Assembly (NCBI GenBank): GCA_039932995.1
Contig: JBDTOZ010000386.1
Coordinates: 1-52,375 of the forward strand
Direction of reading: 5' to 3'
Length of the DNA stretch: 52,375 nt
Source: Acidobacteriota bacterium
GTDB lineage: Bacteria; Acidobacteriota; Thermoanaerobaculia; Gp7-AA8
Shown piece after piece: positions 1 through 36,503 of the stretch. The translations under genes were made by a program, and so were the position numbers. Position 1 is the stretch's first letter. Each line of letters begins with the position of its first letter. The notes under the pieces are model-generated. The model did not search any database, had not been told where the DNA came from, and saw nothing but the letters and a program-made list of their open reading frames with translations.

Positions 1-438
1 CCGGATCGAGCGGCACATACGCTCCCCCCGCCTGCAGAATGCCCAGCGCGCCCACGATCACGTCCGGGGTTCGCTCCATGCACAGCCCCACCAGCCGGTC
101 CGGCCCCACACCCTGCCCCTGCAGGTAGAGTGCGAGCGTCTGACTCCGGTCGAACAGCTCCTGATAGGTCAGCCGCTCTTTGCCACATACCAGGGCGATC
201 TTCTCCCCATGGAGCGCGGCCTGGCGGACGAATCCGTCCTGCAGACACTCGTCGTTCGGATACTCCGCCCGCGTGGCGTTGTACTCGACCAGCAGCCGCC
301 GCTTTTCCGCGGCGCTCAGATACTCGAGGTCGCGGACCTTCGCGTGAGGCGCGGCCACAATGGCTCGGCACAGCGCCTGGAAGTGCTCGGCCATCCGCTC
401 AATGGTCTGGGGGCGATAAAGAGCGGTGCTGTATTCGA
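1..438. repeat. Intragenic direct repeat (C/A junction of module 4), near-identical to 3397-3834
   Basis: ccggatcgagcggcacatacgctcccccc... at position 1 recurs at 3397 (offset 3396) with scattered SNPs; it probably continues beyond the window. Confidence 0.85.
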
Positions 439-10309: not shown

Positions 10310-10461
10310 GGCTGATCCTTCCTTCGCATCTCGTTTCATCCGCGACGCAGAAGCCATCGCGTTCATTTTGTCTGAGGGATTTCTTGTCGATCCTCGAGTG
10401 AGGCCGGCGCGGCAATGAGGGCCGCGGACTCGTTTCGGAGCGGGATCGACGTCGTGAACTA

Positions 10462-10547
10462 AGGAGTCTGCGCGGTAGAGGCATTTGCCTCGGAGCGACC
10501 GTACGTGCCCAAGGCTATGCCAACCAGCGCTGGCGGCCGTGCCGCCC
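10462..10547. repeat. Dispersed ~98 bp repeat, copy A (shortened, 86 bp), abutting the stop of the upstream NRPS-like gene
   Basis: aggagtctgcgcgg...cggagcgaccgtacgtgcccaaggctatgccaaccagcgctggcggccgtgccgccc; shared with 36643-36740 and 51992-52089. Confidence 0.85.
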
Positions 10548-15631: not shown

Positions 15632-15681
15632 GGAGTGATGTCTGCAGCTCGAAAACGACCGCGCTTCTCGCAAGTTGAAAT

Positions 15682-21600: not shown

Positions 21601-24600
21601 GTCGGCGATGTAGAACGGGGTCCCTGTGAGGTTGATGTACGGGTTGACCTCCTGCAGGTGAAGGTTCGCCGGAATCTGCTTGTGCTGGATGGCCAGCAGC
21701 GCCTTGAGCACGCCGGCGATGCCTGCGCCGGTCTCCAAGTGACCGATATTCGTCTTGACCGAGCTCAGTCCACAGTGCGGGATCTCCGCGGGACGTTTGT
21801 TGTGTCTCTTATACAGCTCCGCGAACGCCTTGCTCAATGCCTGGATCTCGATCGGATCCCCAAGACCGGTCCCGGTGCCGTGGCATTCGATGTACCCGAC
21901 CGTGGCCGGATCGACCTGGGCCTTCTCATACGCCTCGATGAGAAGGTCCATCTGCGCCACTGAATTGGGAGCGGTCATGGTGGTGACCCGGCCCCCATGA
22001 TTCTCCGCGGTGGCCTTGATCACCGCGTACACATGATCGCCATCCGCCTCGGCTTTCGACAGAGGCTTGAGGAACACCGCGCCGCAACCCTCTCCTCTCA
22101 CATAGCCGTTCGCGCCTTTGTCGAACGTCTTGCACTTCCCGTCTCCGCTCAACATTCCGGCCATGCCGAACGAGATGTAGGCGGCCGGGCTGAGCATGAC
22201 CTGAACGCCACCGACGATGGCCATCTCACAACTGCCGGAGTGAATCGACTCCAAGGCCCGGTGAAACGCCACCAGCGAGCTGGAGCACGCGGTATCGATC
22301 GGAGCGCTCGGCCCGCGCAGGTTCAGCAGGAATGAGACGCGGTTGGCGGTCACGGAGTGCGAGTTGCCGGAGGCCGTATAGCCGTCCAGCGCCACACCGC
22401 GGCTGCCGAGCAGACCGGCGTAGTCGGTGGTGCCGACGCCGAGGAAGAGGCCCGTTTTGGTGCCCGACAGATCCGACACCTTGTGGCCGGAGTCCTCAAT
22501 GGCTTTCCAGACATGCTCGAGGAAGATCCGCTGCTGCGGATCCATCATCTCCGCTTCTCTGGGCGAGATGCCGAAGAAGAGGGGATCGAACTTGTCGACC
22601 TCCCTCATGAACCCACCCCACTTCGAGTTCGACTTGTTCGCCTCCTTGAGAGGATCTCCGTAATACTCCTCCCAGTCCCAGCGGTCGGGAGGGATGACGG
22701 TGATCAAGTCCTTCGAGTTTCGGAGGTTCTCCCAGAATTCATGCAGGTCATCGGATTGCGGCATGACGCCACTCATCCCGACGATGGCGATCGGCTCCTG
22801 CACGAATCGGAGGTGGGGGGACAGGGATGCCGGCGCGACGGCCGCTTCCGTCTGTCGATTCAAAGCGGCTGGGTTCCAGCCCTTGTTGATGCCGACACTC
22901 GGCACGAGCTCCACCTGAGCGCCGGAGAGAGGAGCGACCGGCGGCCCGGAAGGCACAGCAGCGGCCGCGGACGCGGGCATGGAATCGCGATAGAAGGCCA
23001 GGAGCTCGGTCCGCCGCTCCACGGCCAGATGCTTTGCAATCTCACCGATCGACGGGTAGTCGAAGAACAGAATCGGCGTAATGTCCAAAAGGAAACGCTC
23101 GTTCACCGCATTGGCGAAGGTGGTCAAGCCGATGGAGTCGAAGCCGAGGTCCAGCAGAATCTTGTCCGCCGACAGATCGGCGGCCTCCAGCTTCAACAGC
23201 TCCATCACGATCTTCGCGAGATCGTTCTGGAATCGCAGAGGCAGCGCACCGTCCTCCGTCTCGGTCGTCGCGCTGGCGACGTCCGAATGCACGGGCGCGG
23301 CGGTCGTGGCCGGTGCCGGCGGCTTCTTGCCGCTCCACGCCAACTCCAGTTTTTCCTGGATGCCTTCCACGACCGCAAACTGCGATCGTTCGGAGGCGAG
23401 GCCCCGCACGAAGGCCTCGAGACCGGTGGCGGTGCTCAGGGGTTTCATCCCCATGGCTTTCCTGAGCAGCAGCTCGGTCTGTTCGTCCGGCTTCATCCCG
23501 CCGTCCGCCCAGAGAGCCCAGTTGAGACTCAGCGTTTTCCCTGAGCGCTCGCCTTTCGCACGAAGTCGCTCGCGGTCGGCGGCGAACGAGTCCATGAAAT
23601 GGTTGGCAAAGCTGTAATCACACTGGCCTACATTGCCCGTGATTGCCGCGAGCGAAGAAAATAGGACCAGGAAGTCCAACGCGCGGTCACGCGTCGCCTC
23701 GTCCAGATGCAGAGTGCCATGCACTTTGGACGCGAACACCGCCGCCATTTCCTCGGGGGTCTTATTCCGGACATACGAATCCCGGACCACACCCGCCGAG
23801 TGAATGATCCCGTGGATCTGCCCGAACCGCGCCTCGCCCTCGCGAAGGAGCTCCCGCACTTCCTGGCCGTCGGAGACATCGGTGATCCGATAGAGAACCT
23901 CGGCGCCGCGTCTCTCGATGTCGTCCACCCTGAGCTGCTGCAGGGAGGACAGCTTCGATCGCCCGGTGAGGATCAGTTTGGCCTTGTATTGCTTTCCGAG
24001 GAACTCCGCGAAGATCAACCCCAGCCCACCGGCCCCTCCGGTAATGAGGTAGGTGCCGCCCTCGCGCAACTCCGTTCGATCGGACGGTGCCAATTCTCTC
24101 TTCGCCTCGAGGTCGAACGCTTTCAGCTTTCTGACCGACCGCTCTCCGGCCTCGTAGCGCACGACGATCGCATCCTGCGACCGTCCCCGGAGCTCGGCCC
24201 AGAGAGCGTCAAAGATTTCTTCGTATCCGTCATTCGACCGCCGTACTTCCATGGTCTTGCAGACCAGCTTTGGATACTCGCCGCGAAGCGTCTTGACGAA
24301 ACCACCCATGGCCTCGTGGTGCGGTTGCACTTCGTCCTCTGCGGTGGCGTACAGGTAAACGAGCTGAGCTCGATTCTCGAGTTTGCACTGCACCATCGCC
24401 TGGCAGAGAAACAGGAACGACGAAACCCCTGCCTCCATCGACTCCCGCAGGCTGCCTTCCTCGCGGAAATGGGGATGGTGAACGGGCCAGGCAAAGCAGA
24501 TCTCCTCAACGGGGCAGGCTCTGTCGGCGAGGCGTTCCAGAACGCGCTTGAAATCATTCGCGGTCTGCGGGTTGATCTCGTACGTGCGTGCGTCCAGCTC

Positions 24601-27600
24601 CTGGAACTCAGAGCCCGGCCGTACCAGGACGACCTCTGCGTCGTCCGCTCCACTCGCCTTCAGCCTTGCCAGATAGAGCTCACGAAGGGTCTCGCCGGTG
24701 TCGAAGAGCAACAGCGTCTTCGCGGCGACGGCGCTCGATTCATTTGCAGGAAGTGGGGCTCTCTCCCAATCGTACCCGTAGGAGAGCCGTGCAAACTCCT
24801 CATCCGTGGCGGTTTCCTTCTTATGCACATCGCCGAGGGGAACGCCCGTGGATTCCCGAATTCTGGCCAGGACTTTCCCTGTGGGATCCAGAATGAGGAC
24901 GTTCGACTTGAGGACGCGGGAGGCCTTCTTCCCTTCCTTCGCCTCCGTCGTATGGCTATAACAGAGCTCCTGCAGCGGATGAAGAATCTCCACCTCGCCG
25001 ATCGAGTAGGGGACCATCATCTCCCCCACGTTCTCTCCGAGCCGTGCGGCCATGCCGGCCTGAAGCGATCCGTCAATGAGAGAGGGATGAAGGAGGAGAC
25101 TCTGCAACTCGCCCTGCCGGGCCTCTGGCAGCTTCAAGACGCCCAGCACCTCGCTGTCGCTCTTATAGATCTCTTGAAGCACCTGAAAACTCGGCCCGAG
25201 GTTCAGACCGACGGAGTTGAAGAGCGGATAGGCACTCCGGCCGTCCACTTCCTGCGAGCACCGCGCACGAATCGCGGCCAGATCGACGTACTCCGGCTCG
25301 GCAGCCGCTTCCTTCGCAGTCGTATAGAGAAGCTTTCCCTGCGAGTGCAGCGTCTTCTTGCCTTCCCATTCGCTGAAGACCTCGAACTGCACCGCCTCGC
25401 CATTGGGCTTGAGCTCGATGAAGACATCCTTCGGCAGGGAGTCCGAGATCGCGATGGGGCTGACCCAGAGAATGTTCTGAATTCTCCGCACGGGCCTGCC
25501 GGCCGCGATCTCCCCCGCTTTGCGCGCCAGCTCCAGGTAGGCCACACCCGGCAGCGTGGGAATGCCGGCCACGTGATGGTCATAGATGAAGAAGTCGCGA
25601 TCGTGAAATGTCTTCTTGAAGAGCTGCCGCTCGAAGGTGGACTCGTTGCTGTCGACCATCGGATGAAGGCCGGCCACTGTCGATGAGGTGCGTTGAACGG
25701 ACGCGGGAGCACCGATCCAATGACGCTTGCCGGCGAAGGGATAAGTGGGCAGCGGAATCGTCCTTCCGGCGGCCGTCATCGGAGAGCCCTGCCAGTCGGC
25801 CAGGAGGCCCTCTGCCCACAGTCCGGCGATCTTGAGCGGATCGCGACTCTGCGACAGCAACCGGATGAATTCCTGCTTTTCCTTGCGACTCAAGAGCCGG
25901 GTCACGCCTTCGGCCTGCTTCACGTGACCGACGAAACCGTCTTCGAACTTTCTCCCGTCGATGAAGGCCACCAGCTTTCCGACCAGCTCTTCCTGGGTGC
26001 TGGCGATCATCGCCAGGCGATGTTCAAACGACTTCCGGCCGTGCTGCAGCGTGTACGCGACATCGTCCAGATCGACACGGCGATCCGCGAGGAAGCGCGC
26101 CAGCCGAATGGCCGTCTCACGCAACTGATCTTCGGTTCTGGCCGAGAGGGGGAAGATCCGCTGGAGGGACTGGGCGGCCTCTTCGCTCACGGGCTGGGCC
26201 GGCTCGAAACTCTCCAGGATGATGTGTGCGTTCGCCCCTCCGGCCCCGAACGAGCTGATCCCGGCACGGAGCGGAAGCGCGACACCATCCACTTCTTTTG
26301 CCTTCCACTCCTCCAGCTTCTGCGGGACGTAGAAGGGAGAATGCTCGAAGTCGATGAACTCGTTCAGTTCGGAGGAATGGAGCGAGGGCGCGAGCTGACG
26401 GTGCTCCATCTGGAGCAGGACCTTGGCCACGCTCACGATTCCGGCGGCGGCTTCGAGATGCCCGATGTTGCTCTTGATCGAGCCGATCGCACAGCTCTGG
26501 TCCGCGACGTTGTCCTCGCTGAACGCGCGACTGACACCGGCGATCTCAATGGGGTCGCCCAGCTCCGTGCCCGTCCCGTGGGCCTCGACGTAGCCGATCG
26601 TGCCGGCCCCGATGTTGGCCTTCCGGAGTGCCGCCACAATGACGTTGCTCTGCGCCGCAGGGTTCGGAACAAAATAGCCACTGGTCCGTCCGCCATGGTT
26701 GACGACGGCGCTCTTGATCACTCCGTAGACATGATCGCGGTCCGCGAGCGCCTGTTGGAGCGGCTTGAGGAACAGCGCACCGACGCCTTCACCCGCCACA
26801 TAGCCGTTGGCGCCCTTACCGAAACTGCGACAGACTCCGTCCGCCGACAGGGCCCCGCCCACCTGATTGATGTTCAGTTTCGCCTGATGCAGATCCAGAT
26901 TCACACCGCCGACGAGGGCCGACGGACACTCCCCGGACCGGATGGACTCGCAGGCCAGATAGAGCGCCGTGAGACTGGAAGAGCAGGCGGTGTCGACCGT
27001 CAGACTGGGACCGGAGAGATTCATCCAGTACGAAACACGGTTGGCAATGCTCCAGAGAAACGAGTTGGGCGCAAAGTGATTGCCGGCATGTCGTTGTTCC
27101 ACACCGACGATCTGATACATGGACCACACGGCGCCGACATACACGCCAATGTTTCGCAGAGCCCCTTCCTCGGCCAGGATCTCAGGGTAATAGCCCGCGT
27201 CCTCGATCGCCTCCCACGCCACTTCGAGAAAGAGCCTCTCCTGAGGGTCGAGCATCTCCGCCTCTCTGGGAGAGATGTTGAAGAACAGCGAATCGAATTT
27301 GTCGACGTCGTCGATGAAGCCGCCGCGATACCGTTCCGCATTCCCATGCTGCCGGCGCTGCTCGTGCCGCTCCGCCGGGAGGTCTTCAATGCAATCCCGG
27401 CCCGCGGCCAGGTTTTGCCAGAGCTCCCCGGGATTCTTCGCCTTCGGATAGCGGCCGGACATGCCCACAATGGCGATGTCTTGCACACCACCCCACGGTT
27501 TCACGCGCGTGGCCGTAGGGAACGAGTCTTCGGACGTCTCCTTCTCCTCACCCTTCGACGTCGATTCTGCTGAAGACCGCTGAGCGGAGGGAGCGCCGGC

Positions 27601-30528
27601 CATGAATGGCTGCATGGCGGAAGCGGGCGCGGCAATCGCCGCGTCGTTCTCGGTCACGTTGTGCATCTCGAGCAGCCGGTAGCGGGCGAGTCCGAGTCCC
27701 GAGGCGGATGCACTACGGCCATCCACGCCAAGCTCGGGAATGTTGGCCTTCTCCTCGAAGGCCTGCACGAGCCGCTCGATCACTCGTTCCATCTGATGGC
27801 GCGGCAACCCCACAGGGATGGCCAGTCGGACCAGATCGTTCAGCGACGTGCGCTTCTGCATTCCCACACTGTGGGCGCCCGCGCGGATGCCCGTGCTGCG
27901 ATACAGCCAGGCCACAAACGACGCCACTGGTTCCTTCAGCCGCATGAACTCCGGGATCTGCTTGACGTCGATCAGGACGCAATGCCCGCCGGCGGGACTG
28001 GCGAGGGGAAGGCCATGCTCGGTTGCGGCCTGCCAAAGGAGCCGGACGTTCTCCATCCTCTCCGTCACGCTGGCCTCGATGTGCTTGCGATTCCGAAGAG
28101 CCAGGGCGATCAGCTTCTCGTCGACGAGATCGACGCCGGAGCCCTCTTCGTGCACGACCTCCTGCAGTCTCTTGTGGAGCTTGGCGTCGTTGATGGCGAT
28201 GATCCCGCCCTTGTCGACACAGAAGTCCTTGGTCAGGCTTCCGATGACCATGTCCGCGAGGCTGAGCGTTTCACGAACGACCGCCCACACACTCCTGCCG
28301 GCATGTTCCCGCTGGCGCTCAATGAGCTGCCGGGCATTCTCCACGACGCGGGTGGCGTCCATGACGAGGGGAATCGAATGCGGCGCCAGGACAGCCCTCA
28401 CCTCCGCCAGATGCTGGAGAGAAACGGGATAGCCGCCGGCAGCGTTGTTCCCCACCTCGATGCAGACGCAGGCAATGGCGCCATGATCCTCCGCCACCAG
28501 CGCCTTCAGTGCGTCGACTTCCAGATTTCCTCGGAAGAGTTCCTCCGAGCCGAGGTGAAAGACCTCGCCATGAGGGATTTCTCGCGGCTCAAACCCCTGG
28601 TCGAGCTGATGAAGGATGGTGCTCGGGAACAGGAGATTCTGGGGCACGAGCCCCTTCTTTCCCCAGGCCTTGAAGAAGAGGCGCTCCGCCGCCTGACCGG
28701 AAGCGGTCAAGACGAAGTGAGAGAACGGAAAGATCGCTCCGAGTGCGTCTTCCATGCGCACCGGCTGCTGCAGTCGTGCCTGCAGCTCACTCATCTGTGT
28801 CTCGATGGCCGGCAACGTCAGTTGCGCCCAGGAGTCGGTCTTCAAGTCGAAGTCGACGTGCTCCTGAGGAATGGCGAGGGGATTGAAGCCATACGCCGCC
28901 AGCAGTTCCGCTCGGTCCTTCCCGCCGTCCGAGAACCGGTCGAGGCCGACCGCCGCGAAGCGAGGCGTTGCCGAACGAGGTGCGTCCTCTACATCGCTGG
29001 TCGAGGTCTCCCTTTGCGCGGCGACGCCAAAATTGTGATTCTCGGCGTCGGACGTCTGCATCTTGTCCGGATCGGCGATCATCATGATGATGTCGATGGC
29101 ACTGTCCGGATTGCCGCTGCCTTCGGGCCGGCAGAGATAAATGGGTGTGTTCTCGGGCCGGAACTTGTTCTTGAACTGGAGATTGCCTTCGTCATTGAAG
29201 ATGTTCTGAGCGCGCAAATCATCGAGGAGCTTGTCGATGGCCGGGTCAGCGTTGGGCGATGCTTCCAGTTTGCAACCATAGGTGCCGCCGAGACTGAGCA
29301 CGTCACGGCCTTCCTTGACGAGCACGTCGATGATCTGCACGATCGCGAATTCCAACCCGCCCAGCGGCATGTCCGGCGGATAGAACTCCATGTCCATCAA
29401 GTAGCCGTTCTCCGCCGCAGACATGGCCGTGATGATGATGACGTTCTGAAGGGTTCCGTCGAGGAACGTGAGGAAGAGCCGATGTTCGCTCGGCAGTGTG
29501 CCGGCCAGAATCTCGCCCTTGACCTCATGGACCAGCGGGTTGACCATCGCCCGCGCTTCGCACCAACGGTCGATCACTCCCGCGATCTTCCCATCCATGG
29601 TTTGATCGGTCCCGCAACGGTACTCTTCGGTCCGGCATGCCCCCGACTTCTGAAACTTGCTCACCTGATAACGCAGCCGGCGCATCGGCCCGCCGTCGAG
29701 CGTGAACTCGCGGAGATTCCCGATGCGTTGCATCGCGCCGAAGGGCGTCGCCGTGAGCCGGATCGAGCCGATTGAAGGGCTGTCTCCTCCGCCCATGATG
29801 CTGATCTCGAATCCGCGGGCTTCGCAATAACGGGCCATCTCCTCCAGAAGTTGCGGGAGATGATCCTTTGGACCCGTATACCCGTACACGAGGATCAGCT
29901 TCTTGCTGCGCCCGTAGTGAAAATATCCGCGGCGCTCGCGGCCAATGAACAAATTCGGCGCAATCTTGCGGGTTCCCCGCGAGACCGACCCCTCAGCCTT
30001 ATGGAGTTCAAACAATGTCCGCACGAGCTCCCCGAGTTGGGGATGGACGATTGCGTCCTTCTCGAGAATGCGGATGGCCTCCGCCTGCTCTTCGCGGGGC
30101 TGCGGTTTGCTCGCTGCGGGAACGGCCACCTTCACGGAAGAGGTCACGAGCTTCGGGGCGCTGCTCTCGCGAACGCCATGTGTGGGCACGGCCTGCAGTT
30201 GACCGTTGAATCTCCCGACGAGCGTCTTCTCGTGCTTGGCTACGAAGTATTTAGCCAGATCATTGATATTGAAATTCTCGAAGAGCAGGCTCTTCGGCAA
30301 CGTGCCAAAGTCGGTCTCCAGTCGCCGGATGATCTTCAATACGTAAAAGGAATCGAGACCCAGCTCGGCGAATTGGGCCAGCGAGTCGAAATCGGCGCTC
30401 AGAGATCCGGAGACCTCGGCGATCAGCGATTTCAGGTAGGACTCAGTCAAGTCACGCAACAAGTCCTGGTCGATCATGGTGGTCTGGCGCGGTGAGGGTG
30501 TCAGCGAGCTATGGTTGGGCGGTAACAT
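15682..30528 (-). CDS. Trans-AT type I PKS: ACP-DUF2156(LPG synthase C-like)-PLP beta-eliminating lyase-KS-DH-KR-ACP-KS-DH-KR-ACP-KS-ACP
   Basis: 4948 aa (alternative start 30477). Three KS with TACSS/HGTGT/NIGH. No integrated AT. DH motifs DHHVAGIPTLP and DHRVKTEPVLP with LIDG/LLDG. KR motifs ITGGAGGLG...GQCDYSFAN and VVGGAGGVG...GQSNYAAG. ACP motifs LGLDSF, LGFDSI, YGLDSI, LGLPSL. Confidence 0.95.
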   Translation of the reverse strand: MLPPNHSSLTPSPRQTTMIDQDLLRDLTESYLKSLIAEVSGSLSADFDSLAQFAELGLDSFYVLKIIRRLETDFGTLPKSLLFENFNINDLAKYFVAKHEKTLVGRFNGQLQAVPTHGVRESSAPKLVTSSVKVAVPAASKPQPREEQAEAIRILEKDAIVHPQLGELVRTLFELHKAEGSVSRGTRKIAPNLFIGRERRGYFHYGRSKKLILVYGYTGPKDHLPQLLEEMARYCEARGFEISIMGGGDSPSIGSIRLTATPFGAMQRIGNLREFTLDGGPMRRLRYQVSKFQKSGACRTEEYRCGTDQTMDGKIAGVIDRWCEARAMVNPLVHEVKGEILAGTLPSEHRLFLTFLDGTLQNVIIITAMSAAENGYLMDMEFYPPDMPLGGLEFAIVQIIDVLVKEGRDVLSLGGTYGCKLEASPNADPAIDKLLDDLRAQNIFNDEGNLQFKNKFRPENTPIYLCRPEGSGNPDSAIDIIMMIADPDKMQTSDAENHNFGVAAQRETSTSDVEDAPRSATPRFAAVGLDRFSDGGKDRAELLAAYGFNPLAIPQEHVDFDLKTDSWAQLTLPAIETQMSELQARLQQPVRMEDALGAIFPFSHFVLTASGQAAERLFFKAWGKKGLVPQNLLFPSTILHQLDQGFEPREIPHGEVFHLGSEELFRGNLEVDALKALVAEDHGAIACVCIEVGNNAAGGYPVSLQHLAEVRAVLAPHSIPLVMDATRVVENARQLIERQREHAGRSVWAVVRETLSLADMVIGSLTKDFCVDKGGIIAINDAKLHKRLQEVVHEEGSGVDLVDEKLIALALRNRKHIEASVTERMENVRLLWQAATEHGLPLASPAGGHCVLIDVKQIPEFMRLKEPVASFVAWLYRSTGIRAGAHSVGMQKRTSLNDLVRLAIPVGLPRHQMERVIERLVQAFEEKANIPELGVDGRSASASGLGLARYRLLEMHNVTENDAAIAAPASAMQPFMAGAPSAQRSSAESTSKGEEKETSEDSFPTATRVKPWGGVQDIAIVGMSGRYPKAKNPGELWQNLAAGRDCIEDLPAERHEQRRQHGNAERYRGGFIDDVDKFDSLFFNISPREAEMLDPQERLFLEVAWEAIEDAGYYPEILAEEGALRNIGVYVGAVWSMYQIVGVEQRHAGNHFAPNSFLWSIANRVSYWMNLSGPSLTVDTACSSSLTALYLACESIRSGECPSALVGGVNLDLHQAKLNINQVGGALSADGVCRSFGKGANGYVAGEGVGALFLKPLQQALADRDHVYGVIKSAVVNHGGRTSGYFVPNPAAQSNVIVAALRKANIGAGTIGYVEAHGTGTELGDPIEIAGVSRAFSEDNVADQSCAIGSIKSNIGHLEAAAGIVSVAKVLLQMEHRQLAPSLHSSELNEFIDFEHSPFYVPQKLEEWKAKEVDGVALPLRAGISSFGAGGANAHIILESFEPAQPVSEEAAQSLQRIFPLSARTEDQLRETAIRLARFLADRRVDLDDVAYTLQHGRKSFEHRLAMIASTQEELVGKLVAFIDGRKFEDGFVGHVKQAEGVTRLLSRKEKQEFIRLLSQSRDPLKIAGLWAEGLLADWQGSPMTAAGRTIPLPTYPFAGKRHWIGAPASVQRTSSTVAGLHPMVDSNESTFERQLFKKTFHDRDFFIYDHHVAGIPTLPGVAYLELARKAGEIAAGRPVRRIQNILWVSPIAISDSLPKDVFIELKPNGEAVQFEVFSEWEGKKTLHSQGKLLYTTAKEAAAEPEYVDLAAIRARCSQEVDGRSAYPLFNSVGLNLGPSFQVLQEIYKSDSEVLGVLKLPEARQGELQSLLLHPSLIDGSLQAGMAARLGENVGEMMVPYSIGEVEILHPLQELCYSHTTEAKEGKKASRVLKSNVLILDPTGKVLARIRESTGVPLGDVHKKETATDEEFARLSYGYDWERAPLPANESSAVAAKTLLLFDTGETLRELYLARLKASGADDAEVVLVRPGSEFQELDARTYEINPQTANDFKRVLERLADRACPVEEICFAWPVHHPHFREEGSLRESMEAGVSSFLFLCQAMVQCKLENRAQLVYLYATAEDEVQPHHEAMGGFVKTLRGEYPKLVCKTMEVRRSNDGYEEIFDALWAELRGRSQDAIVVRYEAGERSVRKLKAFDLEAKRELAPSDRTELREGGTYLITGGAGGLGLIFAEFLGKQYKAKLILTGRSKLSSLQQLRVDDIERRGAEVLYRITDVSDGQEVRELLREGEARFGQIHGIIHSAGVVRDSYVRNKTPEEMAAVFASKVHGTLHLDEATRDRALDFLVLFSSLAAITGNVGQCDYSFANHFMDSFAADRERLRAKGERSGKTLSLNWALWADGGMKPDEQTELLLRKAMGMKPLSTATGLEAFVRGLASERSQFAVVEGIQEKLELAWSGKKPPAPATTAAPVHSDVASATTETEDGALPLRFQNDLAKIVMELLKLEAADLSADKILLDLGFDSIGLTTFANAVNERFLLDITPILFFDYPSIGEIAKHLAVERRTELLAFYRDSMPASAAAAVPSGPPVAPLSGAQVELVPSVGINKGWNPAALNRQTEAAVAPASLSPHLRFVQEPIAIVGMSGVMPQSDDLHEFWENLRNSKDLITVIPPDRWDWEEYYGDPLKEANKSNSKWGGFMREVDKFDPLFFGISPREAEMMDPQQRIFLEHVWKAIEDSGHKVSDLSGTKTGLFLGVGTTDYAGLLGSRGVALDGYTASGNSHSVTANRVSFLLNLRGPSAPIDTACSSSLVAFHRALESIHSGSCEMAIVGGVQVMLSPAAYISFGMAGMLSGDGKCKTFDKGANGYVRGEGCGAVFLKPLSKAEADGDHVYAVIKATAENHGGRVTTMTAPNSVAQMDLLIEAYEKAQVDPATVGYIECHGTGTGLGDPIEIQALSKAFAELYKRHNKRPAEIPHCGLSSVKTNIGHLETGAGIAGVLKALLAIQHKQIPANLHLQEVNPYINLTGTPFYIADRLTEWKAPVSEDGSLAPRRAGVSSFGFGGANAHVVLEEYIPASRPAAVVANELQLIVLSAKNEERLRAYVRSLSEYLERGSVELADLAYTLQVGRDEMQARAAWLVSSLEELKQKLSAIVVSEEWPRDGYRNGREVRSAVQGTDAEKTAFVQDLISRRDLAGLAESWVAGTKIDWRLLHQAGARRRLSAPTYPFARERYWIPAGAETQSETRRPQSAATEVRLHPLIHRNVSTLIEQKFTSRFTGAEFFLADHRVKTEPVLPAVAYIEMAAAAGELAGERKVRFLSNMVWLSPITVGKSGQDVEVSLLPARNGVEFAVKSGEGESAVTHCRGQLAYLGTLSPPNALNLAEIRERCATEMIDGADWYRFLSTSELNLGPGFQVVQRVDAGESECLAVLHLPEHLQEDAGHYWLHPSLLDGALHTAIGFVKRRSGDDRPWSVPYSAAEIQVFRSLQGARYAHASWDPVEVNKAGSAVRMQLHLLDAAGEILLRVRDFVAKPLPARRIQERAVPGSSDTPSLAANATLHSLRSTWSPAADVNGDTLPMSSRIVLLDSRGAALEWVRQSYPNARPCDVAQMASEALDGDMLSHDSFDQLLWIAPDLDPMTGHGVEGSEPILALQEEGILQVFRIVKTLLDRGHGNKKLQWTLLTGRTQRVTAEDTIEPAHAGIVGLVGSLAKEYPHWDVRVLDLDSLQAVTASGCLSQPWDELGNVRAHRQGQWFQQGLELLPAPKEGTSLYRKGGVYVVVGGAGGVGEVWSRFMIEHYGANLIWIGRRECDASIEDKIKELGLLGPAPLYIAADATDHAALERARVTILEKHPAIHGVVHSAIVLRDQSLLRMDEESFRAGLTAKVDVSVQIDRVFGGDALDFMLFFSSIISFFRSPGQSNYAAGCAFKDSFAQRLQQERAYPVKIMNWGYWGTVGVAADPSHHKIMARLGMGLITPDEGMAALQGFMRSDVEQMTLIKTLNAEAPVGASLTEAITRHLSRQISAAAPASPAVEIKNTAPAVTRDSARDAGFSAQRTVQMGSSQIQQVIVTQLSRALRLDAGMIRGDAPLADYGLDSIIGVNFVRTLNEVLLIELDPTKLFEYSTVDQLTQYITTLSPGMTESQPSATTPVEVRTPSGDASPNRIPVSGARRFLRVDEVGEKDQTRVEGQSGSAREVRAERIAIIGMSGRFAQSETLEEFWQHLAQGSNLVREVSRWSAADCSASGSNGHAYCSQASSIDTFDRFDPGFFGIPAREALYMDPQQRLFLEESWKALEDAGYAGKGVQEKQCGVYVGCGTSNYSDLFGDDPPAQAWWGNSHSIVPSRIAYHLDLQGPAVAVDTACSSGLVAVHLACQGLWCGETEMALAGGVYVQATSGFHQVGNRAGMLSPDGKCYSFDARANGFVPGEAVGVVVLKRLSDAQRDGDHIYGVIAGSGVNQDGRSNGLTAPNGRAQERLERSVYERFTIDPGTIQMFEAHGTGTLLGDSIEHGAMTRAFRAYTERQQFCALGSVKTNIGHAGNAAGIASLLKLLLSLKHGQIPPSLHFQSPSPGIDLGSGPFYVNTELKDWPQGEDRARRGAVSSFGFGGTNAHLVIEEAPSQTRAGVDVPASLLLLSARSGEQLREHARNLLEHLRGTPDLALSDVSFTLFVGRMHLSHRLACVTGSLPEAVEALERWLETGEARQVHTGEVPEGGVREQPALRKFGNYCVDECRSATDDAAYVESLDALAGLFVQGYSIDLQALFSTESKRVPLPTYPFARERYWVTGAPARPEFGARPLALQGIDFDREVAATTEEVQPRWLFSKEIAAGSAVVSRNGSMGAAEKMELFLKQATAVQLQVPIESVPLDRSYFDLGLPSLSIAHLIRNLNQLLEEELSPSALFDYTDIKSLATYLAKTYPAKIDVLHVIRIAGEASPLEQSRPLHPAKPAPLRPKDDVLADKEVRSPEHADVSAAQAGMDRDQVLERVLWQADVTPDDGYEIVTF
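27700..30080 (-). other. DUF2156-like + tryptophanase-family PLP lyase didomain (leinamycin DUF-SH-like) inside the PKS loading module
   Basis: First domain has MprF C-terminal-like motifs (FTLDGGPMRRLRYQVSK, YLMDMEFY, GGLEFAI, VLSLGGT, GNLQFKNKFRP). Second has tryptophanase-like motifs (DLKTDSW, GQAAE, NNAAGGYPVS, MDATRVVENA, SLTKDFCVDKGG with putative PLP Lys, GGHCVLID, LVRLAIP). Boundaries approximate. Confidence 0.8.
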
Positions 30529-30629: not shown

Positions 30630-31502
30630 TCAGCGGTCGGTCTGTTGCTGGATCTGCTGCGTCATCCGCGTCAGAACGTTGCCCGGCCCGATCTCGGTGA
30701 ATTGCGTGACGCCCTGGCCGATCAGGAAGCGGATGCTTCGGGTCCACTGCACGGAATGGGTAATCTGGTCCACGAGGAGCGACTTGACCGATTCCGATGC
30801 GGCGTCGCTCGGATACGGCTGTGCGGTCGCATTGGCAATGACCGGCGTCTGCGGCGCGGCGAAGGACATCGGTGCGAGAAACTCCCTGAAAGCCTTCGCC
30901 GCCTCCGCCATGTAGCGCGAGTGAAACGCCGCGCTGACCTGCAGGGGAACGTACATCTGCGCACCGGCCTGGTCGAACAGCGGACCGGCGCGCCGAATAT
31001 CCTCCACCGGGCCGGAGACGACCGTCTGCGCAGGCGTATTGAAGTTGGCCACATCGAGCGTCGTCAGGCCGTTCTCGCGGATCACCGTAGCGATCTTCTC
31101 CGGGTCGAGACCGATTACCGCCCCCATCCCGCCGTTCTTCGCCTGGGCCATCAGCTCACCCCGCTTCTGGACCATCCGCAGCCCCGTGAGCAGGTCGAAC
31201 GCACCGGCTGCCAGCAGCGCGTTGTACTCACCCAGACTGTGGCCGGCGAGATAAGCGGGCCGCACGCCCTGAGCCACCGCCTTGTAATAGTGCAGTGCAT
31301 TCACGACATACAGACTGGGCTGAGTGAACTGGGTCTCCTTCAACCGGTTCTCGGGGTCCTCGAGGCACAATCGGCGCATCGAGTAGCCGACAACGGCATC
31401 AACGTCCTTCTCGACCGCCGCGTACTCAGGCACTTCGTCGAAGAGGCCTTGCCCCATGCCACGCTTCTGTGAGCCTTGTCCTGGAAATACGAAGGCAATC
31501 AT
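30630..31502 (-). CDS. fabD: Discrete malonyl-CoA:ACP acyltransferase (trans-AT, PksC/FabD-like)
   Basis: MIAFVFPGQGSQ, TQFTQP, AGHSLGEY, ANFN, SAAFHS, EIGPG. RBS GGAG and an ATGA overlap with the PPTase stop. Confidence 0.92.
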   Translation of the reverse strand: MIAFVFPGQGSQKRGMGQGLFDEVPEYAAVEKDVDAVVGYSMRRLCLEDPENRLKETQFTQPSLYVVNALHYYKAVAQGVRPAYLAGHSLGEYNALLAAGAFDLLTGLRMVQKRGELMAQAKNGGMGAVIGLDPEKIATVIRENGLTTLDVANFNTPAQTVVSGPVEDIRRAGPLFDQAGAQMYVPLQVSAAFHSRYMAEAAKAFREFLAPMSFAAPQTPVIANATAQPYPSDAASESVKSLLVDQITHSVQWTRSIRFLIGQGVTQFTEIGPGNVLTRMTQQIQQQTDR

Positions 31503-32362
31503 CCAACTCTCCTGTCGAAATGATGATGGGAGCGCTCGCAGTGTTGCTCTGAAGTCCTCAGGAACACCGGAGCCCAATGTTGTTCGCTCATCAAGGGAAC
31601 CGTCCGCCGGACGACCACGGCCGGCGCGCTTCCTTCGAGACGTTCGGCGCAAAGCGCCACGAGATAGCTCGCCTCGGGCCGGAACTGCCAGAACTGCCAG
31701 CGATCGGGCACGTCGGCCAACTCCGGATCGATGGCAATCTCCACGGCGCGCGCGCCGGGATATTGAAAGCTGAACTTGTCGAGGGGCAGGGACAAACCCA
31801 TTCCCCGTGCCTTGATGTATGCCTCTTTGAAGGTCCAGTACTCGAAGAAGCGATACTGCTGCTCGTGAGCGGGCGCCGCCATCAGCGTCGTCACCTCACC
31901 CGGCGCGAAGTAACGGTCGGCAATGTCCATCGGCACATTCCTCGCCTCGACGTTCTCGACATCCACTCCCAGCTCCCTCTGCCGCGTCACCGCCAACACG
32001 ATCAGACTGTGAGTGTGGGAGATGTTGAAGGTCAGCAGGTCACGCTGTGCGGCGACGTTGGCAATCTCGGGCCGCCCATAGGCGTTCGTCTTGAAGATCC
32101 AATCCGCCGGCGCGATGGACGCGTAGCGTGACAGCACCGTCCGCACGAGGGCTCTCGTCACCAGGTAGCGGCGACGATCTCTGGCGAAATGGAACCGCGG
32201 CTCCTGCGCCGCCTCCTCCGCGTTGAGGAGACCGCGGTAATGTGCGTGCAGAAGTGGGTCCTCGATCTCGTCGTAGGAGGTCAGCCACAGATGAATCTCC
32301 CCAGGCGTTAGGGGAAGCTCTCCAGGCGTCGACTGCGCGATGGCTCTTTCCTCAGCACTCAT
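31499..32362 (-). CDS. Sfp-type 4'-phosphopantetheinyl transferase
   Basis: YGRPEI, FNISHT, LGVDVE, FFEYWTFKEAYIKARGMGL. Start trimmed to MSAEER. Confidence 0.93.
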   Translation of the reverse strand: MSAEERAIAQSTPGELPLTPGEIHLWLTSYDEIEDPLLHAHYRGLLNAEEAAQEPRFHFARDRRRYLVTRALVRTVLSRYASIAPADWIFKTNAYGRPEIANVAAQRDLLTFNISHTHSLIVLAVTRQRELGVDVENVEARNVPMDIADRYFAPGEVTTLMAAPAHEQQYRFFEYWTFKEAYIKARGMGLSLPLDKFSFQYPGARAVEIAIDPELADVPDRWQFWQFRPEASYLVALCAERLEGSAPAVVVRRTVPLMSEQHWAPVFLRTSEQHCERSHHHFDRRVG

Positions 32363-33113
32363 GAATGCACAGCAGGTCCTTGGAGGTGATCCAGGTCTCG
32401 CTCGGATAGCCGAACGCGTTGTTGACATAGGAGACGCCGTCGATCTTCACGTTGCGGTTCACGTGACTGTGCCCGTAGACATGGATGTCGGCGTCGAGCC
32501 CGCGCAACTCTCGCTCCAGCCTCGACGAGCCGAGAATTGGGTAGAGAACCTTGCTTGCGCAGGGCATGAATGCGGGCATGACATCGATGCGCGGAAGGAA
32601 GTGCGAGTAGGTGATGATTTGATCCGTCGTCGCTGCCACGGGCCGGTCGTTCAAGGCAGAGAAATGGGCGGCCACATCGTCTTCCGAATAGCCGCTGGGC
32701 CACCGGCAGGCGCGGTAGTCCATCCACATCGCACGCAGCTCCTCACTGGGCGCGCCGAAGGAGTAGTCATACCAGGCCAGCAAAGGGATGATGGTCACGC
32801 CCTTCCCGCGAAATGCCTGCATGGACGCGCCGCTCGCCTCCACCACCGTACAGACGTCGTCGAATTTCTCCAGCGAAGTCTTGTGGCGTCCATCGCGGAT
32901 GACCCACAGGTCGTGGTTCCCCGGCACGAAGAGCACCTTCTTGAAGCGCTTCGCCAGGGTGGTGAGGCCCCACTCCAGCAGACGCAGGGTATCGGTCACG
33001 TCGCCGGCCAGGATGAGCACATCCTCTCGATAGTCACTGGTCGAGAGCTGTGCCACCCACTTCGCGTTCGCGTCGTAGTCGATATGGATGTCCGAGACGG
33101 CAAAGATTCGCAT
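32352..33113 (-). CDS. Calcineurin-like metallophosphoesterase
   Basis: SDIH, LAGDV, PGNHD, SHF, GHSH motifs. Start MRIFAVSD at 33113. Confidence 0.9.
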   Translation of the reverse strand: MRIFAVSDIHIDYDANAKWVAQLSTSDYREDVLILAGDVTDTLRLLEWGLTTLAKRFKKVLFVPGNHDLWVIRDGRHKTSLEKFDDVCTVVEASGASMQAFRGKGVTIIPLLAWYDYSFGAPSEELRAMWMDYRACRWPSGYSEDDVAAHFSALNDRPVAATTDQIITYSHFLPRIDVMPAFMPCASKVLYPILGSSRLERELRGLDADIHVYGHSHVNRNVKIDGVSYVNNAFGYPSETWITSKDLLCIHEC

Positions 33114-33136
33114 GGGTCGTTTCGTGGTCTTCCGCT

Positions 33137-34096
33137 TCAGTGACCGGCGGAGACGGTGGCCAAATTCTTGAGGTCTGTTCCGAACGGCGTGAGGATGGCA
33201 CTGACCGTCGAGGCCGTGCCTGATGGAAGCCCGTACTTGAGAAACGTGGCCAGCGTGCCGGCCGGGCCGACGTCGATATACCGCCAGGGACCCTGCCGCT
33301 CGAGCCCGGCGATGGTCTCCCGGAAGCGGATCGGCTTCCGCACCACGTCCCAGAAGTAACTCTCGGAAAGCTGGGACACGACGGTTCCCTGATCGCTGCA
33401 CACCATGGGAACGTGTCCCGGCCGTGTGCCAATGGACCGCATGAACGTCTGGAAAGGAGCCCGCGCGCCGTCGATCCATTGCGAGTGAAAGGGGAACGTC
33501 ACCGGGAGTTGCTGATGGTTGACCTCGTATCTCCTCAGGTCGGCCCCGATCCCGGCCAGCTCGGTCTGCCGGGCGGTCACCACGAAGTGAGAGGCGAAAT
33601 TCACCGCGGCCAGCTCACTGCGCGCGCTGAGGAAGCTCTTCGCAAACAGTGCCGGATCCGCCAGTACCGCGGTCATGCCTCCCGGCTCGGCCCATTCCTC
33701 GAGCGCCAACGCCTGATGAACCACGGCGCGCAGCGCGTCTTCCACGTCGAGGAATCCACTCACCGCGGCAGCTGCGAACGACCCCATGCTGACGCCCAGC
33801 ACCAGGCTCGGGGTCACACCTGCCTGCATCAACGCCCGCGCCAGCGCCACTTCGACCATGAAGATTGCCGGATGGGTCAGCGAAGTGCGATCGAACGAAT
33901 CGCCTTTACTCTTGCCTTCGGAATAGAGAGCGGCCAGCACCGACTGACCCGATGTCTGCCGGACGACGTCGTCCAATCGGTTCATCCAGTCACGAAATGT
34001 CCCGTTGGCATCGTAAAGAGCCCTGCCCATGTGGAAGTACTGGGAGCCCTGCCCGGAGAACATGAATACGGTGCCTGGCTGCCTCACCGCGTTCAT
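33137..34096 (-). CDS. AT-fold protein, probable proofreading acyl hydrolase (PksD/PedC-like)
   Basis: VFMFSGQGSQY, active site LGVSMG (not GHSLG), FPFHS, DVGP. Confidence 0.8.
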   Translation of the reverse strand: MNAVRQPGTVFMFSGQGSQYFHMGRALYDANGTFRDWMNRLDDVVRQTSGQSVLAALYSEGKSKGDSFDRTSLTHPAIFMVEVALARALMQAGVTPSLVLGVSMGSFAAAAVSGFLDVEDALRAVVHQALALEEWAEPGGMTAVLADPALFAKSFLSARSELAAVNFASHFVVTARQTELAGIGADLRRYEVNHQQLPVTFPFHSQWIDGARAPFQTFMRSIGTRPGHVPMVCSDQGTVVSQLSESYFWDVVRKPIRFRETIAGLERQGPWRYIDVGPAGTLATFLKYGLPSGTASTVSAILTPFGTDLKNLATVSAGH

Positions 34097-34113
34097 CTGG
34101 GCCGGGCCGTCGA

Positions 34114-34881
34114 TCACGATTGCTCCCACGGAAACACTCCATGCTCGACATAGCGGGTGATGGCCTTCAAGTTGCCGGCGTCGGAGAAGACCTCCTGATT
34201 CCCGGCAATGGCCGCCGCTCTCTGCTCGTGCAGAGGCACACCCAACTGGCTCACGTAGCTCTTGTAGCGCCGGATGCCTACCTTCGACAGGCGTCGCAAC
34301 CGTTGCAGGTGCCGCCGCAAGAGCCCTTCGCTGGTCGCCTCCCATGCGTCGACCAGGCCGATCTCACTGGCTTGCTTCGCAGCGATGGGCTGGGTCATCA
34401 GCGTGAGGTAGTGCGCTTTCTGGAAGCCAATCCGCCGCACGAGAAACGGGAGCACGCACGCCGGGTAAAGGCCGAAAAGAAGCTCGGATAAACTGAATTG
34501 TGCGGTCTCGTCGGCGAGCACGATGTCACTCGAGGCGACGAAGCCGATTCCACCGGCATTGGCCTTCCCCCGCACGTGCGCAATCGTCACATACGGACCG
34601 GTGGCCATGCGCGTCCAGAGGTCGTAAAGCGGACCCGGGCCCTCGTCCGCATCCTCCCCTGCCAGCGGCGCCGCTGCAATGCTCTTGAAATCGGCTCCGA
34701 AGCAGAACACTTCCGGCGAGCCGCTCAGCACGACCACGGTTGCGCGGTCCTCGCATTCATCCAGCACCTGATGACACTCGGTCACCAGCTGGCCGCTGAT
34801 CGTATTGTTCGCTTCAGCGCGATCGAGCTGCAGGTAGCAGGTCGATTCCTGAAACTGCACCTTAATGGTCTTATAGGTCAC
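34114..34881 (-). CDS. pksH: Enoyl-CoA hydratase, beta-branching ECH1 (PksH-like dehydratase)
   Basis: EVFCFGADF, GKANAGGIGFVASSD, FSLSELLFGLYPACVLPFL, C-terminal GVFPWE. Confidence 0.88.
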   Translation of the reverse strand: MTYKTIKVQFQESTCYLQLDRAEANNTISGQLVTECHQVLDECEDRATVVVLSGSPEVFCFGADFKSIAAAPLAGEDADEGPGPLYDLWTRMATGPYVTIAHVRGKANAGGIGFVASSDIVLADETAQFSLSELLFGLYPACVLPFLVRRIGFQKAHYLTLMTQPIAAKQASEIGLVDAWEATSEGLLRRHLQRLRRLSKVGIRRYKSYVSQLGVPLHEQRAAAIAGNQEVFSDAGNLKAITRYVEHGVFPWEQS

Positions 34882-34929: not shown

Positions 34930-36186
34930 TCAATGAGTCCGCTGCCAGCAGAGCGCCGTATTGATTCCGCCGAATCCCATGCTCAGGGTGAGGGCGTGCT
35001 CCACGGAATGATCCACGGCCTCCGCGCCCACCCACTGAAGCTGTCCGTCGAGCGGGTGATCGAGATTGCGCGTGGGGTGGAGGCGACCGGCCTCCATCTG
35101 CAGCAGGGTTGCGATCACTTCCACTGTGCCTGCGGCACTCAGTCCATGCCCGATCAGCGATTTGGTGGCGTTCAGAGCGGCCCCCGCCAGGCCACTGGCG
35201 CGAATTGCGTTCAGCTCCGTCTCGTCGCCCACGATCGAGCCGGTGCCATGCGGATTGACATAGTCGATCTGCTCCGGCGCCCAGCCGGCTGCGCAGAGAG
35301 CTTCACGAATGGCTTCGACCTCTCCTTCCAGCGAAGGGTCGGGATTGCGATTGCCATCCATGACCAGTCCCCATCCGTGCAGACCCGCGGAGGACGTCAC
35401 ACCACGACGCGCGCTCGATTCCTGCGATTCCAGAACGACCGCGCCACAGGATTCGCCGAAAATGAAGCCGTCGTGATCGCGATCGAACGGCCGGCAGGCC
35501 AGAGAGGGTTGGTCCGCGAAACGGTCCGAGCCCATGGCTCCCAGTGCACGCAGCCCGCGGCATTCCCAATGCGACAGATCCATGAGCGCTCCGACCGCAA
35601 TGCAGACGTCCACCTGGCCCGTCAGAATTGCTTGCGCCGCCTGCACGATCGCCAATTGCCCGCTCGCGGAAGCGCCGCCGACGGTATAGGCGAGCCCGCG
35701 AATCCCGAAGTGCGCCGTGCAGAACCCGCAGATGTCCGAATCCATGAAGGACAGCGCATACGTCGGCCGCAGGAACGCCGCGGAGTCGCGGTGCGTCTCG
35801 TGCGTCCGGGACAGCTCTCTTTGCTGAACGTTCGATCCCCCCACGATCAGCCCGATGCGGCGGGGATCGACCTCACCCAACCGGGCCTCGGTCCATGCTT
35901 CGTCCAGTACGGCCAACGCCACCTGCGCCGACAACGAGGCCGCACGCAGCGTTTGAGGGGCGATTCCGGCGGGAAACTCGATCGCGCCGATCTCGGCGCC
36001 GAGGTAGGAGGACTCGCGCTGGCGACCGGGACGCTGCATGACGCCGAAGGCCGTCTCTCCGGCGAACAGTGCCCGCGCAAACGCCGCTTTGCCCTGACCG
36101 ATGGCGGAAATCACACCCATCCCCGTGACCACCGCTCGCGGAGCCGGGGCTGCAGGGAGGCTGTTCTTGAGTGATCGCACGTTCAT
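34930..36186 (-). CDS. pksF: Decarboxylating ketosynthase of a beta-branching cassette (PksF-like)
   Basis: Active-site Cys replaced by Ser (TVGGASASG); YVNPHGTGS, TKSLIGHGL, SMGFGGIN. Confidence 0.88.
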   Translation of the reverse strand: MNVRSLKNSLPAAPAPRAVVTGMGVISAIGQGKAAFARALFAGETAFGVMQRPGRQRESSYLGAEIGAIEFPAGIAPQTLRAASLSAQVALAVLDEAWTEARLGEVDPRRIGLIVGGSNVQQRELSRTHETHRDSAAFLRPTYALSFMDSDICGFCTAHFGIRGLAYTVGGASASGQLAIVQAAQAILTGQVDVCIAVGALMDLSHWECRGLRALGAMGSDRFADQPSLACRPFDRDHDGFIFGESCGAVVLESQESSARRGVTSSAGLHGWGLVMDGNRNPDPSLEGEVEAIREALCAAGWAPEQIDYVNPHGTGSIVGDETELNAIRASGLAGAALNATKSLIGHGLSAAGTVEVIATLLQMEAGRLHPTRNLDHPLDGQLQWVGAEAVDHSVEHALTLSMGFGGINTALCWQRTH

Positions 36187-36254: not shown

Positions 36255-36503
36255 TTACGCGGCGTTCATTCTCTGGAGAAACAGGTCCGCGAGCTCACCG
36301 ATGTTCTTGGGTCCGAAGAGCTCGACGCGAGGAACGGACAACGCCAGCGACTCCTGCACCAGCATGGCGATCTCTGCTCGATCGACGGAATTCGCGCCCA
36401 AGTCGACCAGCCGGTCGGAAGGGACGAACGGATGAGTATCGAGACCCGGCAGAATCTCGCGGGTGTGTTGCGCGATCAGATCGAGGATGTCCGTTCTGGT
36501 CAT
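36255..36503 (-). CDS. acpK: Stand-alone donor ACP (AcpK-like)
   Basis: 82 aa from MTRTDIL; LGANSVDRAEI and NIGELAD signature; RBS GAGGAG. Confidence 0.9.
   Translation of the reverse strand: MTRTDILDLIAQHTREILPGLDTHPFVPSDRLVDLGANSVDRAEIAMLVQESLALSVPRVELFGPKNIGELADLFLQRMNAA

Follow-up and report, generated by a model that had tools for sequence, protein, structure and literature searches.

The stretch of DNA analysed here (the window) is 52,375 nucleotides long and forms the whole of contig JBDTOZ010000386.1 (hereafter C386) of an Acidobacteriota bacterium, whose genome is assembled in 953 contigs totalling 6.78 Mb and is ~95% complete. It carries a gene for a 4948-aa polyketide synthase (PKS), in which Pfam placed the domains in the order ACP0-DUF-SH-KS-DH-KR-ACP-KS-DH-KR-ACP-KS-ACP (ACP, acyl carrier protein; KS, ketosynthase; DH, dehydratase; KR, ketoreductase). 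No acyltransferase (AT) domain was matched by Pfam in this protein, which therefore belongs to the trans-AT PKSs. Our subject is its N-terminal part, where the first carrier, ACP0, is followed by a DUF2156-type domain (DUF) and a pyridoxal phosphate (PLP)-dependent lyase domain (SH). ACP0-DUF-SH is probably the carrier-and-tailoring half of a split extension module, the other half being the C-terminal KS-DH of a PKS encoded on contig C705, and the complete module would leave an -SH or -SSH group at C-3 of the growing chain.

Domain organization at the PKS N-terminus

Translation of the PKS probably begins at Met18 (nt 30477), since relatives align only from query residue ~18 onwards. ACP0 begins ~10 residues past this methionine, and no docking domain was detected N-terminal to it with Pfam. 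The carrier motif LGLDS occupies residues 56-60, which places the carrier serine Ser60 at nt 30349-30351. The DUF matched LPG_synthase_C with 54 bits against a cut-off of 27.5 and contains a conserved QFKNKFRP block at residues 451-458. Within the SH domain, the Beta_elim_lyase match covers residues 587-854, and the SLTKD motif (residues 764-768) supplies a putative PLP lysine, Lys767, at nt 28228-28230. The KS that follows, KS1, has all three catalytic Cys/His/His motifs intact (DTACSSS, EAHGTGT, NIGHLE). A preliminary description of this DNA had proposed that the PKS opens with an ACP (LGLDS), a DUF2156 domain, a PLP lyase (SLTKD) and a KS; Pfam and the motif positions agree with that proposal, and the span it delimited, 27700-30528, corresponds to residues 1-943, that is to the ACP, the DUF and the SH domain. 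Both families that it expected were matched, LPG_synthase_C with E 1.6e-14 and Beta_elim_lyase with E 1.7e-29.

Identity of the DUF-SH didomain

The SH domain was compared with proteins of known structure by sequence and by fold. The sequence search returned PDB chain 9cen_A with E 1.1e-58, an entry whose title names the thiocysteine lyase (SH) domain of the guangnanmycin pathway, ahead of tyrosine phenol-lyase (1e-40) and also of the tryptophanases. The AlphaFold model of ACP-DUF-SH was of moderate overall quality (mean pLDDT 67.6, pTM 0.47), with a pLDDT of ~90 in the SH region and of ~50-93 in 10-residue blocks of the DUF, lower near residues 441-461, and only the confident SH part was used. 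Foldseek ranked 9cen first for this part, with E 3e-30 and a TM score of 0.78-0.80. In the sequence alignment, SLTKD with its Lys767 lies opposite SLSKD of 9cen_A and, in tyrosine phenol-lyase, opposite the lysine block SGKKD; DATR, NNAAGG and VRLAIP are conserved blocks as well. Tyrosine phenol-lyase and tryptophanase share with the SH domain the fold-type I PLP lyase architecture, the conserved lysine and the DATR, NNAAGG and VRL blocks. The SH residue aligned with the phenol-protonating tyrosine of tyrosine phenol-lyase is not a tyrosine.

DUF2156 is related to the GNAT family. The DUF of the window PKS found LpiA and MprF chains with E values of 2e-9 to 8e-5, and its QFKNKFRP block lines up with FKSKFHP of LpiA; in the aminoacyl-phosphatidylglycerol synthases this block is the best conserved one. 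The two groups thus fall in one Pfam family, LPG_synthase_C, and match in the FKxKFxP block; unlike the C-terminal domain of MprF/LpiA, the DUF of the window is embedded in a PKS, lacks a membrane flippase domain and gives no sign of tRNA use.

A DUF2156 domain directly followed by Beta_elim_lyase thus occurs inside one PKS polypeptide, and the SH domain, with its PLP lysine in place, lies nearer to a proven thiocysteine lyase than to free-standing tyrosine phenol-lyase or tryptophanase. Judged by sequence and modelled fold, the pair is a genuine leinamycin-type DUF-SH didomain, as the preliminary description had suggested. The genome contains one DUF-SH copy and two free-standing lyase paralogues, which are 31-32% identical to the SH domain. 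Thiocysteine/cysteine lyase activity in vitro has been published for LnmJ, GnmT and WsmR, according to the accessible text of PMC8479088, and by analogy with these three proteins the SH domain of the window PKS would be active.

A carrier-less KS-DH protein as the probable partner of ACP0

Modules of trans-AT PKSs can be split between two polypeptides. A cut of the kind proposed here would leave KS-DH at the end of one protein and an ACP at the start of its partner, and equivalents joined in one polypeptide occur in the family. The genome of the window contains a candidate for the first half. The C705 ORF at 7234-25476, a 6081-aa PKS, ends in KS-linker-DH, with 29 residues after the DH and then a stop, and Pfam found no PP-binding match after the DH. 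The motifs of the terminal KS (DTACSSS/EGHGTGT/NLGHSE) and of the DH (HLVHGERIFP, HYGP and DGALQ for HxxxGxxxxP, YGP and DxxxQ) are intact. We considered whether this KS could be the non-elongating KS0 of a dehydrating bimodule, and rejected the idea on its intact Cys/His/His motifs. The genome's only gene for a hydroxymethylglutaryl-CoA synthase (HMGS) directly follows the C705 PKS, while KS0, the ECH1-type enoyl-CoA hydratase (ECH) and the donor ACP of the beta-branching cassette are encoded in the window, so that both contigs are parts of one system.

Relatives of the C705 protein pointed to the same partner. Among 445 KS domains from all collected proteins, the C705 terminal KS was best matched by the terminal KS domains of three related loci, L011 (78.0%), L023 (77.6%) and L012 (76.9%), followed by the last PKS of Massilia (68%) and of Lysobacter (64%), and each best-matching KS is itself terminal, with a DH next and then the end of the protein. 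In L011, L012 and L023 the KS-DH orthologue lies immediately 5' of the ACP-DUF-SH gene. The two ORFs of L011 are 140 nt apart (the first stops at 9872 and the second starts at 10013), and only an LnmK homologue and HMGS separate the KS-DH and ACP-DUF-SH proteins of L023. This LnmK homologue (7393-9861 in a metagenome-assembled genome (MAG) of Thermoanaerobaculia; acyltransferase/decarboxylase hot-dog domain, Pfam E 1.4e-63) echoes leinamycin beta-alkylation. All five further genomes searched with the C705 KS-DH, which belong to other phyla (Fulvivirga, Aquimarina, Chitinophaga, Caballeronia and Steroidobacter), gave one standout orthologue each, at 54-60% identity against 41-43% for the runner-up, with the reading frame stopping some 16 to 27 codons past the match.

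The two halves also occur in one chain. A HMMER search of 1.84 billion representatives gave 313 proteins at E <= 1e-30, the best 150 of which were domain-mapped by phmmer with single query sequences, a procedure that may miss ACPs. Among these 150, a fused KS-DH-ACP-DUF-SH-KS was parsed in three representatives (P0015, P0044 and P0114); P0014 and P0108 resemble the fused form, each with one domain called differently between two parses, and KS-DH-KR-ACP-DUF was present in nine. By start type, 32 of the best 150 begin ACP(-ACP)-DUF, 60 carry a KS upstream in the same protein, 22 begin inside the DUF, 18 show no DUF and 18 have other starts, including DH-KR-ACP-DUF and KR-ACP-DUF, which correspond to other cut points within the family. 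When KS1 of the window PKS was compared with the 445 KS domains by BLAST, the top 121 matches all follow an SH domain, and they include 9 of the 20 mid-line cases. A carrier-less protein end, an ACP-first partner and fused homologues, the marks of a split module, were thus all found.

Position of the release domain in complete clusters

Complete genomes allowed the order of the assembly line to be read across a whole cluster. In Massilia atriviolacea, PKS1 (ACP-DUF-SH-KS...) is followed by PKS2 (ACP-KS0-ACP-TE; TE, thioesterase), and then by transport genes, a GMC oxidoreductase, an AMP-ligase, a short-chain dehydrogenase/reductase, the KS-first PKS4, PKS5, PKS6 ending in KS-DH, and the HMGS cassette. 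A complete Lysobacter genome has the same PKS gene order, the thioesterase being shown by Pfam in Massilia only. In the genome of the window, a non-ribosomal peptide synthetase (NRPS) on contig C774 ends in PCP-C-A-PCP-reductase (PCP, peptidyl carrier protein; C, condensation; A, adenylation), followed by MatE, a GMC oxidoreductase and a KS-first PKS, so that a terminal reductase stands in place of the Massilia thioesterase. Release therefore comes after the DUF-SH protein, which the large PKSs whose genes lie further on must precede in biosynthesis. In the genome of the window, in Massilia and in Lysobacter the two halves are thus encoded at opposite cluster ends, a difference from other split modules, and the genes stand in an order that is rotated against that of biosynthesis.

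The small PKS after the Massilia DUF-SH protein (L096, 11815-15249) has a KS just before its thioesterase. In both Massilia and Lysobacter the KS of this protein is without its catalytic histidines (NVNCASS / EVDGYAT / NIGNVE) and is a non-elongating transfer KS.

Distribution and phylogeny

With one genome scanned per species, 258 loci with the layout were confirmed, and the best 80 of these, from Acidobacteriota, Bacteroidota, Pseudomonadota and Fibrobacterota, all span residues ~4-20 to 927-950 of the window PKS. Within the genus of the window the layout was found in 6 of 24 other genomes, and in 0 of 16 from other genera of the class. In a FastTree phylogeny of 108 DUF-SH regions, the N-terminal type forms a clade of 37 rows (support 100), apart from a leinamycin-like, terminal-TE clade of 31 rows, and the window sequence groups with L011, L012 and L023 in one clade of 10 rows (support 99). 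Identity between the window protein and proteins of the terminal-TE type is 33-39%. Three MAGs carry two paralogous DUF-SH clusters each (L009 and L011; L022 and L012; L014 and L023), one cluster with accessory genes upstream, as in the window, and the other with a KS-DH PKS directly upstream.

The likeness to leinamycin and guangnanmycin lies in a DUF2156-type domain directly followed by Beta_elim_lyase, after an ACP in an AT-less PKS, in an SH domain nearest to the one solved for GnmT, and in the presence of an HMGS cassette. The terminal KS-ACP-ACP-DUF-SH-TE within an eight-module NRPS/PKS that defines the leinamycin-type biosynthetic gene cluster (BGC) does not occur in the window PKS. Its DUF-SH is not in the last module, a KS and no TE comes after the SH domain, a single ACP replaces the tandem pair, and the KS of the module, with a DH, would sit on another protein; hosts of this type are MAGs and isolates of Acidobacteriota, Bacteroidota and Pseudomonadota rather than Streptomyces. 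The accessible text of Meng et al. (2021) counts 109 BGCs with DUF-SH and divides them into four families, of which one is the leinamycin family and three are not (PMC8479088), and that of a 2024 Angewandte paper describes non-leinamycin DUF-SH modules with one ACP and no TE (PMC7618002). Table 2 of Milano et al. (2013) lists CP-DUF2156-PLP3-KS-KR-CP-KS(-KR) (CP, carrier protein) for Kordia algicida A9ECY5 and Lysobacter sp. ATCC 53042 F8TUA6 (PMC3870968). As far as these sources present them, the two proteins and the non-leinamycin DUF-SH PKSs share the N-terminal layout of the window PKS. In the literature found, figures and supplements aside, no product, place in the assembly line or partner is assigned to the non-leinamycin or CP-DUF2156-PLP3-KS proteins, and neither a loading-module role for the layout nor its pairing with a KS-DH protein is mentioned. 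The layout is widespread and was already tabulated in 2013, and it most likely does not represent the unusual initiation strategy that the preliminary description had considered.

Proposed course of sulfur installation

We infer the following course for the split module from the domain identities and from the orphan KS-DH end, whose orthologues lie next to ACP-DUF-SH genes in relatives, together with the fused proteins and the place of release in the clusters. A trans-acting AT would load malonyl onto Ser60 of ACP0, and the terminal KS of C705 would extend the long polyketide chain onto it. The beta position would then be converted to an alpha,beta-unsaturated thioester, either through an in-trans reductase and the DH, or through HMGS and ECH1 as in leinamycin. 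At this stage the DUF may promote conjugate addition of L-cysteine or L-thiocysteine at C-3, and the SH domain, using Lys767 and PLP, would cut the cysteinyl C-S bond, so that pyruvate and ammonia leave and -SH or -SSH stays. From KS1 onwards, the chain would travel along a further three PKS modules and five or more NRPS modules before it reached the terminal reductase of C774.

Several points weigh against this assignment. The four contigs C386, C774, C7 and C705 were put in order by domain logic and by analogy with synteny in other genomes, and no end overlaps were found among them. The split module has no KR, even though its DH looks intact, and no loading module for the KS-first PKS was identified in the genome. 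Among the related loci the split is not uniform, the upstream PKS of L067 and L076 ending in a KS without DH. In 73 of 80 related loci the upstream flank is free of any PKS, some flanks being shorter than 3 kb. The domain maps may have lost ACPs, as stated above, and ACP0 lacks the tryptophan (Trp) flag at the S+6 position that is present on a beta-branching ACP of C7. Finally, the role of the DUF has been proposed and never demonstrated biochemically, going by the accessible text of PMC8479088 and PMC7618002.

Alternative readings

The rival that survives best, though we hold it to be somewhat unlikely, keeps the split module and takes the Michael acceptor from the HMGS cassette, as a carboxylated beta-branch dehydrated by ECH1, instead of from KR/DH chemistry. 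The cassette itself is complete in that HMGS was found on C705 and KS0, ECH1 and the donor ACP in the window; a discrete ECH1 is present in the genome and no discrete ECH2. A module without KR would suit this route, and HMGS follows the KS-DH protein in the genome of the window, in Massilia and in Lysobacter. In L023 the LnmK homologue and HMGS lie exactly between the two halves; the KS-ending PKS of L067 is followed by HMGS and ECH1, and that of L076 by an ECH1 match, with no HMGS detected there. According to the accessible text of PMC7618002, module 8 of the leinamycin family works in this way with ACPs that lack Trp flags. Set against these points, ACP0 is without the flag and the cassette is already accounted for by flagged ACPs that adjoin in-cis ECH domains on C7, the DH motifs of C705 are intact, and the many mid-line DUF-SH modules that contain DH-KR can do without a branch. 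The Trp flag was tried as a test of beta-branching on ACP0 and is not decisive, as the branching ACPs of the leinamycin family lack it too (PMC7618002, in its accessible text).

Contig C7 encodes two PKS modules with in-cis ECH2-like domains (nt ~6051-7430 and 15561-17465), each after a weaker ECH-like stretch, and at least one of these domains is followed by a Trp-flagged ACP (GLDSIGGVTWIRK). By their domain content, these modules are likely sites of HMGS beta-branching.

We regard as improbable a second rival, in which the module is split as proposed but its chemistry is not that of leinamycin. Here the DUF would transfer an aminoacyl group from tRNA and the SH domain would carry out a beta-elimination, or the sulfur would be only transient or the didomain silent, the final product being thiol-free. 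This rival can point to the QFKNKFRP block retained by the DUF and aligned with FKSKFHP of LpiA, and to a DUF function that is unproven in any system, as far as the accessible text of PMC8479088 and PMC7618002 goes. Loci of Aquimarina sp. Aq78, A. muelleri and RhTr2 (L037, L039 and L045), which the accessible sources report as strains with the trans-AT BGC of the polyketide cuniculene, share the layout, a tentative link. The SH domain, for its part, lies nearest to a proven thiocysteine lyase and keeps its PLP lysine, DATR, NNAAGG and VRLAIP. A PLP lyase needs a free amino group on its substrate, which an S-alkyl-cysteine adduct offers. Joint conservation of the didomain and the next KS in different phyla also speaks for a function that has been kept.

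The preliminary description had read the didomain as a loading module, and we find this very improbable. A true loader would turn a short enoyl-ACP into a starter with a 3-mercapto or persulfido group, and KS1 would carry out the first condensation. Gene order alone fits such a loader, given the 73 of 80 related loci whose upstream flank is without a KS match; in the window no other megasynthase gene stands between the accessory genes and that of the PKS, whose ACP is preceded by ~10 residues in which a docking domain was not detected, and no other loader for the assembly line was found. What a loading module presupposes, namely that no upstream KS feeds the ACP, does not agree with the KS-DH of C705, with the adjacency in L011, L012 and L023 or with the position of release, the joins between contigs being inferred. 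If ACP0-DUF-SH were a loader, the PKS that ends in KS-DH would lack a carrier in all 11 of the genomes or loci looked at, and ~14,000-18,000 aa of PKS beyond the release domain would be left without a release domain of their own. Close relatives have the KS-DH protein directly upstream, and the fused forms place a KS-DH in front of the ACP. No domain or enzyme was identified that would prime ACP0 with a short enoyl unit, the nearby ECH belonging to the HMGS cassette; Pfam found no loading AT, GNAT decarboxylase, KSQ, CoA ligase/A domain or FkbH in the PKS protein, and a priming role of the GNAT-related DUF keeps a small probability. The free-standing KS of the window was considered as a priming KS for ACP0 and rejected, being of the PRK07103/PksF type with its active-site Cys replaced by Ser. 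The tRNA-dependent pyruvoyl starter, which the preliminary description had offered as a second option, found no support beyond the family resemblance between the DUF and MprF. Equally improbable is a direct priming of ACP0-DUF-SH to a thiol- or persulfide-bearing starter with the KS-DH PKS served by another carrier.

Genes surrounding the PKS

The features of the window are collected in Table 1. Upstream of the PKS lie the genes for two acyltransferases, a phosphopantetheinyl transferase, a metallophosphoesterase and the window-encoded part of the beta-branching cassette, in which the free-standing KS0 has its active-site Cys replaced by Ser (GGASASG). The pair formed by the metallophosphoesterase and the Sfp-type phosphopantetheinyl transferase (31499-33479) is found again 5' of the DUF-SH PKS gene in many related loci, in more than one phylum. 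An HlyD/MacB/ABC export set on the same strand lies upstream of the donor ACP. Two ORFs of 406 and 436 aa (40027-42508), situated between the MacB permease and HlyD genes, gave no Pfam or NCBIfam match, and the acidobacterial loci L019, L022, L025 and L041 have a counterpart of the 406-aa ORF, 57-61% identical, close to their DUF-SH gene.

Downstream of the PKS, NRPS 1 gave no Pfam PP-binding match at E <= 0.001, and a docking domain and a complete A domain stand at the start of the gene that follows it, so that an odd split or an assembly error is possible. NRPS 2 runs off the contig inside its fourth A domain. The NRPS modules in this region (window 1-10600) repeat every 3.2-3.4 kb, and the first 300 nt are 96% identical to 3397-3696. 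These 96% identical repeats probably caused the assembly to break within the NRPS gene; they do not explain which contig is the joining partner.

Table 1. Coordinates and assignments of the PKS, its N-terminal domains and neighbouring genes in the window.
Feature	Position (nt)	Strand	Assignment and support
NRPS 2	2..10366	minus	TubC-type docking domain, A, then three C-A units; 3 PP-binding matches in Pfam
NRPS 1, downstream partner of the PKS	10547..15673	minus	TubC_N docking domain, C, A, second A-core
trans-AT PKS gene	15682..30528	minus	ORF of 4948 aa
KS1 (first KS after SH)	26191..27480	minus	ketoacyl-synt from residue 1017
SH domain (PLP beta-eliminating lyase, thiocysteine-lyase type)	27721..28914	minus	residues ~539-936
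DUF domain (LPG_synthase_C/DUF2156, MprF C-terminal-like)	29128..29946	minus	residues 195-467; Pfam E 1.6e-14
ACP0	30247..30438	minus	residues 31-94; Pfam PP-binding E 6.4e-08
trans-acting malonyl transferase, FabD-like (AT_a)	30630..31652	minus	Pfam Acyl_transf_1; TIGR00128 fabD 330.8 bits against cut-off 260.9
Sfp-type phosphopantetheinyl transferase	31499..32428	minus	Pfam ACPS, AASDHPPT_N
metallophosphoesterase	32352..33479	minus	Pfam
second acyltransferase (AT_b)	33137..34345	minus	true start probably near nt 34070-34100
ECH1-type enoyl-CoA hydratase, beta-branching cassette	34114..34881	minus	Pfam ECH_1 8e-56; NCBIfam PRK07112 5e-120
free-standing KS0 (PksF-type decarboxylase)	34930..36186	minus	NCBIfam PRK07103 1.2e-183
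discrete donor ACP, beta-branching cassette	36255..36503	minus	82 aa; GANSVD motif; Pfam PP-binding 2.4e-07

Significance

If ACP0-DUF-SH and the KS-DH of C705 do form one split module, the window PKS would be an ordinary member of its family, part of an orphan acidobacterial trans-AT PKS-NRPS system. The didomain would then act mid-line, in a module cut in two, a situation in which automated annotation is prone to call it a loader. The DUF-SH toolkit for installing sulfur is extended to a large cross-phylum clade of 258 loci, and the cultivable carriers among them (Massilia, Lysobacter, Fulvivirga, Aquimarina and Chitinophaga) are tractable systems for studying the role of the DUF.

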